Assembly: GCA_951406725.2 (NCBI GenBank)
Contig: OX597818.1
Span: forward strand, 107,012,001 to 107,076,000
Source of the DNA: Octopus vulgaris
Taxonomy: Eukaryota
Length of the DNA stretch: 64,000 bases
Direction of reading: 5' to 3'
The notes beneath the pieces were generated by a model. The model was given only the letters and a program-made list of their open reading frames with translations. It had not been told where the DNA came from and did not search any database. Position 1 is the stretch's first letter. Every line of letters begins with the position of its first letter. Below are positions 31,569 to 61,754 of the stretch, piece after piece. A program made the position numbers and the translations under genes.

Positions 31569-31721
31569 TAAGGCAAGGCAAACATCTCAAGTCATACAAT
31601 ATCATTATAGGAAGCAATTCAAGATCTTACAGATCGGGGATTTCCCAGAGAACAGCTGTAAGATTTTAAATTTCTTCCTATAATAGTATTGTATTTGACT
31701 TGAGATGTTTGTCTTGCCTTA
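31569..31721. repeat. palindrome centred on a partial hammerhead (inverted PLE-like terminal repeat)
   Basis: Arms TAAGGCAAGGCAAACATCTCAAGTC...TCTTACAG and CTGTAAGA...GACTTGAGATGTTTGTCTTGCCTTA; centre CCCAGAGAACAGCTGTAAGA. Confidence 0.75.
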
Positions 31722-33887
31722 GCATTTAATGTCCTCATTAACAAATATATATTATATATATATATATATATATATATATATATATATATATATATATAAG
31801 CATATATACGTACGTATATGTATATACTTATATCTATACATATATATATATATATATATATATATATATATATGTGCATATGTGGGCACAGGACATCACA
31901 AAACATGTACAACAAAAAATACGAAATACGAGTACATGGAATATGAACTATTTTTCGAACAATGAAAAATACAAATGGAAAACAAAACAAACAAGATAAA
32001 GAACGACCCTTCGTCAGTTGTTGGCTGTTTTTCTACTCTTGAATTTCGATCATTTAACAACAATATACGTTTTCGATAAAACAGTTGTTCCCATAAAGCA
32101 AATTAAATAAAATTTGGGATTTTGCAGAGGGTCAAAGCTGGTAATACAAACAGGACAGTGAAAACAAACAGGAAGGGCTGGTAAGCCTAAACGAGGTTGT
32201 AGTGGTGAACGTGTAAATCAAGCTTGGACAGGAGACAGACAGGAACATGTCTTCCTTGATCTAGCTACAATGGAGAGAAAGAAACACAAGTTATGAGAAG
32301 AAAGATGACCGATGGTCACGTGGGAGTTACGTGAGCAAAGGAGGAAGAGTGAAGGAGGGAGAGAGTGACAGACAGAGAGAGGAAAAATTGGAGATAGGAT
32401 AAGAGAGGAAAAACAGGAGAGGGAGAAGGAGAGGTAGAAGAATAAGAGAGAAAAATGAAAGAGTAATAGGGTATATATATTGAGTAGAGACATGATTAGT
32501 CGATAACCTGTCTCTAAATATGAGACAAGCAGCTACCAAACTGAAACACTCTGGTGGTACATTCCAGAGGAGGAGGAGGAGGAGGGAAGTTGGAGTAGGT
32601 AGGTAGTTAAAGCAACTGATATAACCACAGAGTGGACTGGTGTTTGTAAGGGTAGGGAGTAGGGACCTTTGGTTGCCCATACTTGATCATATGTTGGTGG
32701 GGAGAGGGGAGTTGAGGGAATTGATAGTTACTGGTAAGATAAATGGGTATGCATATATGTGTGTGTGTGTGTGTGTTTGTATTTGCATGCACACATGTTT
32801 GTTTATGTGGCTACACCCATTCCCGTGTCTGTATGTATATATGTATATGTGAGTGTGTATGCATGTATATGTGTGTGCGTATGCTTGTATATGTATTTCC
32901 CTCTAAGAAGTTTAAATGTTTCAAAACAACAAATTCTAATAGAATTAGTCTCTGGATGATACAGATAATCCAAATCAGAATGGATTTGGAATTTTGTGGC
33001 TAAGTGATAATACCAAAAGACTTGTTCTGCTTTAATTAGACATCATTAATGAGGAATATTCAACTGCTTGATTGTTTTAAACTCAATTAGAAAGAATTTC
33101 TATCCACCTGTTGCTTGAATAATCTCAGCTGATTGAAGTGTTTCCTCTCACAACATTACATATGTGCAAGGCACTGTTATATTTGTATTTCATAGGCAGA
33201 TTACTTCCCTGAAGTATTTCCCTCAACCAGAGAATTGTAGTTATATGAGCAAGAAAGATTGTAGAAGAAATGTACCACTTATCTGCTTGTTTGTCAGCGA
33301 TTATTATAGAAGATCAAGCACAATGCTAGAGAAGCTGGCTATGATACCTCTTTGCCTTTGTTATCTATCAGTTTTCTTTATTTTAAAATAACAGTTGCTT
33401 TCATACTGCAACTTGCAGATGGCCAGGTTGATTAGCTGCTTGCTTATTGTTCAGAGAGACGACAGTTTAAGCTTGTCAAGAGGACAGTAATTTGTCTTGG
33501 GTAGTATTACTTAATTATCACTGATCCAACCATTGGGTGACCTTAGATATGCTCAGTAAATATCAACAGTTGTTAAAATGAATTTGTGATTTGTAAGCTA
33601 AAGTAATTTCCTTGGGATCCTGGGAGAGGCGATTAGAAAACATTTACTTCTTTTAATCACCTTTTATCAAGAATAACATCCTCAGTGACCTCAAATAATA
33701 CAACAGTAATAGAATATGTCGTTAGCGTTTTGGCTTTCTTTTCAGACTCAGACAAACTTGTTAATCATTCTAATCTTTGATGGTTTTATCTTCCATAAAA
33801 TAATATTTTCAGATATGTTAGAATTGTTTAGTGACAACCAGGTTATAGATACATGGTAACAATTTTTTAGGTTTAATAGCGTCTTCT

Positions 33888-34270
33888 ATCTTTTACTTGT
33901 TTCAGTCATAAGAATGTGGCCATACAGGAGCACTGCCTTGAAGCATTTTTTAATCATGTGAATCGACCTCAGTACTTATCTTTTCTTTAAGTCGGTTACT
34001 TATTCTATCAGTTTCTTTTGTTGAACCACTAAATTATGGGGATGTAAACACACCAACAATGGTTGTTAAGCATTGATGAATGACAAACACACACACATAC
34101 ATTTATGTATTTATGACAGGCTTCTTTCTGTTTTCATCTATGAAATCCACTCACAAGGCTTTGGTCAGCCTGAGGGTACAGTAGAAGACACCCGAGGTGC
34201 CACATATTGAGACTGAACCTGAAACCATGTGATTGGGAAGCAAACTTCTTAATGGTGCAGCTATACCTGC
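33888..34270 (-). mobile_element. family A SINE
   Basis: TCTTTTACTTGTTTCAGTCA tail and head in reverse. Confidence 0.8.
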
Positions 34271-34279
34271 ACCTATATG

Positions 34280-34549
34280 CATGGACCCAAAAACAGGGGG
34301 TGCTGGGGGTGCACTTACATTCCCTAAAATTTTTGTGGCATACAAAATAAAAATGTTCACCCCTGCTTACTTTTCTCAGGTTTAGCAAGCGTAAGTAAAA
34401 AAGGTGATCAGTAAAAAGTACCTTGAATTAGGTTTCTTCTCAAAGAAAAAAGAACATAAATAAATAAATAAATAAAACATGAGCTTATTTCTAAAAATTT
34501 TGGGGCCTCGGTTTCCACTCACTCAGTAAATTTCATTTCTGAGTCAGTG
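34280..34549. mobile_element. old hAT-like MITE
   Basis: Imperfect TIRs CATGGACCCAAAAA vs CACTGACTCAGAAA (rc); imperfect 8-bp TSD CCTATATG/CCTGTAAG. Confidence 0.5.
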
Positions 34550-35069
34550 CCTGTAAGTAGACATTTTGAGATTTAATGGTGTGTCATTATTATTATTATA
34601 AAATACGTTTTTAAGAGGCTGTCATAACTTACTTCGGTTTCAAAATGCAATCACAGATCAAATCTTGATAAACAGACTCAACCACAAAACAATATTTATT
34701 GGTGAAGCTACCTTTGTAGAATTTTTATGGCTTAATGCTGTCGTGAATTTACTATTAGTTATGGTGCTTTGATCATTTTGTTTTTACATAATTGATTACT
34801 TTTCACCAACCTCAAATAATGAGTAATTTAATGAGCCAATGATGGAGTTTCTAACTTACTAAGAACGACCTGGTAAATCTCTTTCTGATCACACCATCTT
34901 TAGAAAGGAATGATGTATTGGACAAAATAATCATTGCTAGGCCAAAAAAAAACCCAACTAAAACAACAACAAAAAGAAGTAAACAAAACAAGATATTCAT
35001 GGCTTAAATATGTTTGATCATAGTTGTACCCAAGGCTAAACAACAAGGACAACACTTTGGTTAATGTGG

Positions 35070-59500: not shown

Positions 59501-59817
59501 ATATATATATGTGTATATATATATATGTGTATATATATATATATATATATATATATATATATGTAAAATTTAAACAATGAGGGTGATAAATTGAATATTA
59601 ATTTAATTAATATCAATTTAAAACCTGTAGCCTCACTTATAGAAAAATTCTGGAACTTCAGAAAAATTGTAATACAATATATAGACAGACAGATAGATAG
59701 ATGCATATATATGTGTGTGTATATATATGTGTGTATGCATGTATATATGTATGTATATATGTATGTATATATATATATATATACATATATATATATGTAT
59801 GTATATATATATATATA

Positions 59818-60620
59818 CTAGCAGCATAGCCCGGCGTTGCCCGGGTATGTAAGAGCTCCTAGTAGGCAACGACTAATCCCAATCTAGTCCTTTCCCTCTA
59901 GGGAACGAAGGCGCATGTGTAGGTTGCAATGTCTTCTTTTCACTCCCAAATAACTATCAAACAGCTATCGATAATTCAACCCAACCAATTCCTACCAGGA
60001 AGAAATTACATTCGAGACTTTACCGCCACTTCTGCTAATAGCTGCTGCAGCCGCAAGTTATTCGAATACTTTTTTTGTTTACACTTTCTTTATAACTACC
60101 ACCCCAAACGTTTTACCTTAAATTTTTGACGTACCCTAAGGGTCCTCGGATGCTACTTGCAAACTCTTGGTTTATTATAAACCGCTTTTGTCGTGTGCAC
60201 CAAAAAACCTTTTCCATTCGTTTGTTCAGTTTGTTCACTTTTGACTTTTTCGTTGTTGTCACTCACATTGCTGCCCGCTTTTTTGCCGTTTTTGTACATT
60301 TTTATACATTTTGGTATACTTACCCCACGTGTTCCGAGATTTAAAAAGGTCGAGTTGCGTCCCCTAGACAGTCTGTAGAAAATGTGTTGCATATAAAAAG
60401 CTTAGATTCTCGACCCATGTCGAATTTATCGATTTTTTTTCAGAACTGGGGGAACTTTTCAAAATTTTCGGTGTGTTAGTTTTGAATTATGACATTGGGA
60501 TATGTGTGTGTCAAGTTTCATCAGAATTGGTTGAAAGCATTGGTCAGGGTGAGGGTACAACCTGACAGACACACAGACACACAGACAGACAAACTGCCGT
60601 TCATATATATATATATATAT
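59818..60620 (-). mobile_element. non-autonomous Helitron
   Basis: Minus-strand 3' end: hairpin CCCGGGCAACGCCGGG, then CTAG followed by T; 5' end (TA)n then (CTGT)n; inserted in (TA)n. Confidence 0.8.
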
Positions 60621-60949
60621 GTAAAGGACAGCCATTTCTAACAAATTTTTCAATTGATAATGATTATATTATATTATTTTAAAAAATGCAACTGAATGAG
60701 TGGCAGAAGCATTGAATATTTATGTTGCCATGGATTTAAATCCTTTTTTAAAAGATCATTTTAAATGTCCTTGATTGTAAGATTCACACATTCATCTGAA
60801 GAAAGCGATTTTTATAATGATATAATGCATTCATTTATCAAATAAAAAATTTGTTGGAAATGGCCATAACGTATTAACACCGATCCTTGTTATTTTTCAT
60901 TCACAAAACATGCCCCTCACGTGTTTTGAAGTGTATTATGGACTGTGAG

Positions 60950-61276
60950 GTGGCTGAGTTCCTTTTGAGTGTTGGGCCTCATGGAGGCACTGACCAAGAC
61001 CTTTGTTATTATGTCGTGCTTGAGAAGAAAACCATACCAAGCAGAACAAAACCACAGTTGTGGCAGATACCGGTGTCATGCAAATGGCTCCCATGCCAGT
61101 GGCATGTAAAAGCACCCATTACACTCTCAGAGTGGTTGGCATTAGGAAAGGCATTCAGCCATAGAAAACCATGTTAAATCAGGCTGGATCCTGACACAGC
61201 CTTCCAGCATGCCAGCCCAGTCAAAGCATCAAACCCATGCCAGCATGGACAAAGGACGTTAAATGATGATGATGAT
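60950..61276 (+). mobile_element. RTE-type 3' end
   Basis: Family 3' UTR and (GAT)n tail. Confidence 0.78.
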
Positions 61277-61708
61277 ATTTAATAAAATATACATGTCTGA
61301 ATAGCTCAAAAGTGTATTATATACTCAGGTGGGTTATCATTCTGCCAGTACATCTGTACCAAGCTTGGTCTTCACATAAAAATTGTTGTGTGTACATTTT
61401 ATTACAACCTAACTAGGTGCCTCAACTTTAAGTAACTTAGTCAACTAAATCTTGTTTACATATATATATATATATATATATATATACACACACAAACATA
61501 TGAGAGGTATTGGTACCAAGAAGATCCAAGGTGGCAGGTAATGCTATGTAAGTGCTATGGAAGGATCATAGTTAAACTCTTGGTTTGATAATAATACAAG
61601 TGCGGAGTCTAATGCGGGTCTTGTATGAAAATGTATATGTTAAACAAAATGGGACAACAAATCCAAGGCTGTGTGGAATTTTCAGGACATTTATAAAGAG
61701 AAAGTTAG

Positions 61709-61754
61709 TCTTATAGCTGTATCTGGGATATTAGGGATGTCCCTTCATCAGAGA
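61709..61754 (-). ncRNA. degenerate type I hammerhead motif
   Basis: Minus strand TCT-CTGATGA-A-GGGACAT-cccta-ATATCCC-A-GATAC-AGCT-ATA-AGA; two lesions relative to GAAAC AGCT GTA. Confidence 0.65.

Follow-up and report, generated by a model that had tools for sequence, protein, structure and literature searches.

Hammerhead-bearing insertions of Penelope-like type in a 64-kb window of Octopus vulgaris and a 210-nt repeat family with a G3:C8 core

Hammerhead arms in the window

The stretch of DNA analyzed here, hereafter referred to as the window, comprises 64 kb of the Octopus vulgaris assembly GCA_951406725.2 (2.8 Gb, 227 contigs; contig OX597818.1, here C5, positions 107012001-107076000), has a G+C content of 35% and contains many microsatellites and short repeats. 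A first-pass annotation had described minimal hammerhead ribozyme motifs of several Penelope-like element (PLE) families at 11 positions between 31569 and 61754. On inspection, the described sequence was present at 11 of 11 positions, and each of them is part of a repeat family in the genome, with the hammerhead layout visible in the family copies. Together with a previously unlisted twelfth arm (45388, plus strand), from which the core is deleted, the positions represent ten insertions of ten families, designated A to J. Very probably, these are independent and mostly decayed PLE terminal-repeat insertions, likely copied into TA-rich DNA by a PLE protein combining reverse transcriptase (RT) and endonuclease (EN), and the one assigned to family B likely belongs to a 210-nt non-autonomous element in which a G3:C8 core pair is fixed.

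Among the 12 arms, an intact and canonical hammerhead is found only in the truncated PLE 3' end of family A at 50567..50874 (50613+; plus strand; motif 50609-50652). All core letters combined with helix mismatches were observed in the family I copy at 49487..49686 (minus strand; core at 49607), whose stem II of ~60 nt and stem III contain one mismatch each. Two further arms show the non-canonical norm of their family (44614+ and 45159-), namely the truncated PLE 3' end of family G (44301..44744, plus strand; motif 44611-44647; U3:A8, a 4-nt palindrome and U17) and the short copy of family C (45044..45234, minus strand; motif ~45165-45124; U3:A8, A13C and a stem I of 2 bp). Core letters or half of the motif are lost in the remaining eight arms. 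That most copies are decayed is a point absent from the first-pass annotation.

The eight decayed arms differ in what was lost. Family B forms an inverted pair, the left arm of which (45242..45378, minus strand; motif 45365-45315) stops at the first 3' site and carries A3, G7 and a stem III mismatch versus the G3:C8 norm, while the right arm (45388..45561, plus strand) has the deleted core and a ~58-nt tail with its end in (TA)n. The left arm of family F (52995..53123, minus strand; core at 53095) shows a long stem II, a broken stem III and G17, and its right arm (53132..53269, plus strand; core at 53151) shows C3U and a stem III mismatch. The family H insertion at 31538..31752 (plus strand) is an inverted pair as well, in which the plus arm retains the 3' half of the hammerhead only, with an insertion in the GAAA box. 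Furthermore, the short copy of the very abundant family D (47010..47196, minus strand; motif 47148-47113) combines U at position 6, the family norm, with G12A; the family J copy (55209..55336, plus strand) has lost the 5' strand of stem I and carries G12A, the family itself being a relative of D with a canonical core; and the short copy of family E (61632..61797, minus strand; motif 61755-61709), a family with a canonical norm, carries A14U and a stem III mismatch.

In order to evaluate the motifs within the window itself, descriptor matches were compared with those in 12 local dinucleotide shuffles. The strict descriptor lay above the shuffles (one match, at 50613+, versus a mean of 0.08), and the relaxed descriptors were barely above them (3 matches versus 1.33 and 6 versus 2.33). 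The Rfam model Hammerhead_1 (RF00163) matched the best window motif (50607-50656) with 14.5 bits, the gathering score of 34 bits not being reached, and gave no match at 45040-45520. Among the 150 matches listed from a whole-window Rfam scan (405 matches) there was no hammerhead; these were microsatellite and inverted-repeat matches to models of microRNAs and the like. Support for the motifs is provided by family copies elsewhere in the genome, since the window copies alone are hardly above chance. Moreover, no member of the ten families was found in the first 31.5 kb, in line with the earlier statement that the first 31 kb lack such motifs, and no other hammerhead-bearing repeat was detected in the first half of the window on comparison with ~1 Mb of fetched loci.

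Cores, coding partners and density of the ten families

First-look searches of the genome yielded 1254 (A), 1823 (B), 42 (C), 2856 (D), 2175 (E), 10 (F), 365 (G), 793 (H), 23 (I) and 811 (J) candidates; at most 40 candidates were scored per family, and 9-20 loci per family were aligned. In these alignments the minimal type I layout is kept across family copies and is cleaner than in the window copies. The canonical core (CUGANGA, GAAA, UH) represents the norm in families A (18/18), E (12/16), H (6/10), F (5/7), I (5/12) and J (6/10). It is not the norm in B, C, D and G, which constitute four families with fixed non-canonical cores: U3:A8 was found in 29 of 34 matches of family G, U3:A8 together with A13C in 19 of 19 matches of family C, U6 in 24 of 30 pattern matches of family D (and in 90 of 100 among the matches listed, of 1,477), and G3:C8 in 30 of 42 pattern matches of family B.

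Stems I and II flank the core in nine families, stem I of family C having only 2 bp in register, and stems II of families F and I measure ~55-60 nt. As had been annotated, stem III is self-complementary, its commonest form being a perfect palindrome in all ten families (a tie in J), with patterns for C and G that partly presuppose the palindrome. A double hammerhead is the minimum-energy structure predicted for two copies of family A and likewise of family E. Single-strand folding z-scores were weak (-0.27 to -2.29), as expected for minimal motifs. Judging from the sequences, retention of the 3:8 pair as C:G, U:A or G:C suggests past selection on the fold. Family C appears young, with 12 of its 14 top non-self matches being 99-100% identical over 102-106 nt; this family, with A13C and a 2-bp stem I, and family D, with U6, suggest spread without a canonical core, so that fast canonical cleavage is perhaps not needed for spread.

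PLE traits present in these families include direct repeats (A), inverted pairs (most families) and (TA)n at 3' ends. The expected linkage to PLE RT and GIY-YIG reading frames, for which the window itself contains no PLE coding match, was found at other loci for seven of ten families (A, C, D, E, F, G and H), with PLE coding sequence upstream and in the same sense. Families A, C, E and G are partnered with RT and EN, and D, F and H with EN at one locus each. The annotation of minimal PLE-type hammerheads from several families, with a palindromic stem III, was borne out.

[quoted passage not shown] The translations from L021 contain RWK, DKT, YRDD and a CxCX5C linker and no CCHH, features which, like the (TA)n targets, are shared with the Hydra clade of PLEs as described by Craig et al. 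2021 (PMC8557442). Family A differs from that clade in its 5.5-kb unit, above the usual <3 kb, its long 3' region and its clear direct repeats. A Pfam search of four family A frames returned no RT or GIY-YIG match, and a protein search returned two relatives. Between RT thumb and endonuclease, the family A protein holds an asparagine-rich insert (L021:4200-4350), the length of which varies between copies. An assignment of A and E to Nematis was rejected, the motifs matching Hydra in the supplement of PMC8557442; the Nematis-like linker is that of family G.

At L155, a 784-aa frame with RVT_1 and GIY-YIG matches precedes the family C hammerhead, 700 nt upstream; its motifs are Neptune-like. In 25 of 30 loci found with the family G endonuclease (one being the query's own), the G motif lies downstream, at a distance of 222-1318 nt and in the same sense. 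An open RT-EN frame of 665 aa with the Nematis-like linker is present at L278. Family E follows a Hydra-like RT and EN at L151 and an EN at L157 and L074. Hydra-like EN was found upstream of families F (L090) and H (L117/L153), and Nematis-like EN upstream of family D (L199). The endonuclease at L161 resembles Hydra-1_Obim, an octopus Hydra element listed with a hammerhead in File S2 of PMC8557442. No coding partner was detected for families I and J in 12 loci each, and no PLE frame lies between the tandem family I copies at L154.

The first-pass annotation had proposed a separate, under-annotated class of short non-coding elements. The coding partners of seven families imply that most copies are truncated ends of ordinary PLEs and not members of a new class; given its fixed ends and 197 arms without a detected coding partner, family B fits the non-coding-element claim, and families I and J possibly do. 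The reported density held in part. Ten insertions in 30 kb form a local cluster, and in 261 loci that had been fetched on account of other families the same ten average ~3.0 insertions per 64 kb (D alone 1.7), a comparison that carries selection bias because the ten families were defined from this window. The same scan returned 13 further descriptor matches representing ~10 distinct motifs, none of which matches the window, so that the genome holds more hammerhead families. Minimal hammerheads from additional families, a number of which have a very long stem II, were observed at L142, L082, L085, L212, L221, L257, L293 and L167, the core at L221 being U3:A8.

Within the window, families G, C and B lie side by side around (TA)n tracts (43931-45848), and C and B are also neighbours at L155; their adjacency in different order at the two places suggests a shared target preference. 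A fragment resembling the family B tail, without hammerhead, is located at 35734-35791. No long coding frame was found within the 64 kb. A frame at 1014-1400 (plus strand) with a DUF7083 match (E 1.6e-11) is presumably a long terminal repeat (LTR) retrotransposon gag remnant, and a short frame at 17692-18128, common to four loci and without Pfam support, is taken by us to resemble the C-terminal endonuclease region of a long interspersed nuclear element (LINE) of R4/Dong type. Past the right window end, at a distance of ~3-5 kb, lies a decayed Neptune-like RT-EN region on the minus strand (L163:3056-4766).

The 210-nt family B

Family B, which occupies 45242-45561 in the window, is an element of 210 nt. 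Its 5' end is fixed, its 3' ends are of the PLE two-site type, and its motif has a 7-bp stem I and a 5-bp stem II. A 31-mer with N at positions 3, 7 and 8 gave 1,618 exact matches (control: 0), a number that overstates independent insertions, 31 of 197 distinct arms lying inside a larger repeated unit; a downstream 32-mer gave at least 3,470 exact matches. G3:C8 was found in 95 of 100 and C3:G8 in 0 of 100 among the 31-mer matches listed. Of 93 arms outside the larger carrier repeat whose core could be scored, 80 have G3:C8, a query that contains the core having been used to select many of these loci. Two subfamilies are distinguished by their stem II loop, and stem and core are kept in both. 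A descriptor allowing any Watson-Crick 3:8 pair matched only 2 of 15,000 shuffles of a B copy at its loosest setting. Moreover, B resembles the layout of family G in its extra G, the same stem II ends and U17.

The ends of the element were deduced from loci found by the downstream marker (30 loci), where 16 arms begin at -16 to -10 and the 3' ends fall at +133-137 (12) and +191-195 (18). Outside the carrier, 81 of 166 arms begin at -19 to -10. Only 4 of 166 5' ends are located within 2 nt of the cleavage site, which is about the rate at neighbouring positions, and no pile-up was observed. The tail is present on one arm only in 6 of 6 inverted pairs. Among 32 solo full arms, upstream DNA is held in common only in local duplicates, and beyond the tail, copies that continue in sequence other than TA have nothing in common apart from segmental duplicates (30 of 64 matches and three wider stretches). 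No coding partner was detected among 197 arms, which represent a partial sample of the copies.

At L192:800-2900 and in 30 similar arms (C1), an inverted B pair lies inside a ~1.5-2 kb dispersed repeat, the ends of which at L192 look to us like those of Helitron-associated non-autonomous elements. A 426-bp tandem array (L329:3627-6758, C27; 7.4 copies, 98% matches) consists of B with a broken stem I and a piece of another repeat; as a candidate B master it was rejected, being a local duplication. Furthermore, contigs of four sequencing runs with four organism labels cover families B and C, and no other letter reaches 10% at B positions 3 and 8 or at C positions 3, 8 and 13, where a blank listing is not proof of identity. 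One of the four runs may be related to the assembly, and such contigs show neither expression nor RNA ends.

Proposed mechanism, alternatives and significance

Family membership, hammerhead layout, partners for seven families, common 3' ends, inverted pairs and the one-arm tail are direct observations. Based on published PLE work, they may be connected by the following route. RNA would start at an internal promoter in the terminal repeat, such a promoter having been described in the pseudo-long terminal repeat (pLTR; PMC2377424). The PLE protein would nick AT-rich DNA, and reverse transcription would begin at one of two internal RNA sites, as for PAc Poseidon of Anolis (Frangieh et al. 2024, PMC11167929), where AT-rich DNA is nicked and the tail arises from RT initiation at two internal sites. 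The two sites are proposed to give the two 3' ends, early stops would leave truncated copies, and synthesis back to the first base of the RNA would yield short copies whose 5' end is fixed. Cutting by the ribozyme would require a dimer or the assistance of protein, and uncleaved RNA would be the template of the copies; in PMC11167929 the hammerhead is protein-assisted and insertion in vitro does not depend on cleavage. Copies of family B would then be cDNAs of uncleaved RNA, begun at an internal initiation site, extended back to the start of the RNA and synthesized by a PLE protein acting in trans. The copies seen here, with two 3' ends, tails on one side, pairs in inverted orientation and (TA)n flanks, fit the published PLE mechanism (PMC8557442).

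Comparison with known systems places most of these features among established ones. According to Cervera and de la Pena 2014 (PMC4209133), genomes can hold thousands of minimal hammerheads, which belong to many families and for the most part stand alone, as motifs of truncated PLEs. The layout, the extra base between A9 and stem II, the palindromic stem III, the U3:A8 variant, the many families per genome and the opposite-strand pairs 100-700 bp apart are the same here. Absent from the available parts of that work are G3:C8, family-wide A13C or A6U and a short fixed-end element, and the stems II of families F and I reach ~55-60 nt here. Natural U3:A8 and A6C were reported by Perreault 2011 (PMC3088659). 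In File S2 of PMC8557442, U17 is common, as here, and all cores are C3:G8, unlike the variants described above. PAc Poseidon shares with the octopus families the two 3' ends with tail, AT-rich targets and copies from uncleaved RNA; G3:C8 is a laboratory rescue mutant there, whereas in family B it is the natural norm in thousands of copies for which no open reading frame was found. In the literature searched, G3:C8 occurred in hammerheads only as an engineered form, and Lunse et al. 2017 and Arkhipova et al. 2017 may already list natural ones. For Octopus vulgaris, PLEs are annotated as active in PMC13282606, the available passages of which do not mention ribozymes.

With respect to the non-autonomous reading of family B, its main rival is that B is no more than the terminal repeat of an autonomous PLE, full-length copies of which are scarce or gone; the 5' end would then mark where transcription starts or RT stops, and a separate element would not exist. 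The layout shared with the autonomous family G is in accordance with this, and modal short 5' ends in the partnered families C (8 of 14 at -60 to -55), E (9 of 14 at -37 to -28) and H (8 of 9 aligned, of 12, at -68 to -61) suggest that autonomous families shed short copies as well. However, these modal ends may reflect subfamily differences from the reference copy, and shared upstream DNA was reached by 0 of 197 distinct B arms, whereas copies of A, C, E and G often run hundreds of bases upstream; this explanation is considered possible and falls well short of probable. An origin of the short elements as non-LTR retrozymes, spreading as hammerhead-cut circular RNA monomers, appears very unlikely. 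Metazoan retrozymes (PMC7229834, bioRxiv 10.64898/2026.07.22.740005) are likewise short, non-coding and hammerhead-bearing and are thought to be PLE-derived or PLE-moved, so that a size of 150-400 nt and PLE ancestry fit, and the tandem array described above holds B. Retrozymes, however, form head-to-tail arrays with canonical hammerheads, whereas B occurs as dispersed solo or inverted copies with PLE tail ends; the loci sampled contain no head-to-tail B junction, B does not end at the cleavage site, the sole tandem array includes another repeat piece and a broken stem I, and the motifs are minimal and lack tertiary loops. Least tenable is an explanation by chance matches in AT-rich repetitive DNA. 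It agrees with relaxed window scans near the shuffles and with unmet Rfam thresholds, but it is refuted by the families, whose commoner form is nearer to the hammerhead rule than the window copy and occurs at the expected place in PLEs, and element-level shuffles matched the descriptor only 2-4 times in 15,000.

Concerning the variant cores of B, C, D and G, these could be catalytically dead founder relics whose folds persist through family youth or as protein-binding stems, an explanation that is judged slightly more doubtful than probable. A13C in all C matches and U6 in most D matches listed affect positions regarded as essential, A6C gave under 0.1 per min in PMC3088659, B shows no excess of 5' ends at the cleavage site, and the dispensability of cleavage in the Anolis system is consistent with loss of activity. 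On the other hand, G3:C8 takes two coordinated changes, U3:A8 occurs in two further families, the two B subfamilies retain stem and core despite different loops, and 3:8 double mutants are partly active in vitro (PMC8495972; PMC11167929, where C3G/G8C partly rescues a PLE hammerhead). A more far-reaching version of the non-autonomous reading, tentative and on balance unlikely, would regard B as a dispersed parasite of PLEs similar to a short interspersed nuclear element (SINE), 210 nt in length, that has an internal promoter of its own and a natural G3:C8 hammerhead that is active, and would regard the genome as a natural core mutagenesis series (C:G, U:A, G:C; A13C; A6U) in which spread would be uncoupled from canonical cleavage.

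Several points weigh against interpreting the window arms as PLE insertions and B as a non-autonomous derivative. No source locus for B was found in 30 of 64 matches and three wider stretches, so that the route from RNA start to initiation site is without an identified master, and no partner was detected for B, I and J, whose PLE origin is argued from structure. The links of D, F and H, with one adjacent locus each, could represent neighbouring insertions. In addition, the predicted two-copy fold of B and G is not a double hammerhead, their palindromes are weak (predicted duplex -0.2 and +2.2 kcal/mol) and the cleavage triplet is UUU. Core tallies were obtained with family-specific patterns that presuppose part of each motif, and clade names derive from motif comparison and not from a tree.

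Large numbers of decayed PLE hammerheads in the genome of an invertebrate are ordinary and known biology. New here are family B and the family-fixed core variants, a modest and testable novelty. A natural G3:C8 form would imply that standard CUGANGA descriptors miss thousands of motifs per genome. Cleavage by PLE hammerheads is weak in vitro and was dispensable for insertion in the one reconstituted system, which raises the question why PLEs keep them. A single genome in which families with canonical cores, with compensated ones (U3:A8, G3:C8) and with apparently broken ones (A13C, A6U) have been successful provides a comparison set for this question, and if B cuts, its G3:C8 family would be a new natural ribozyme variant.

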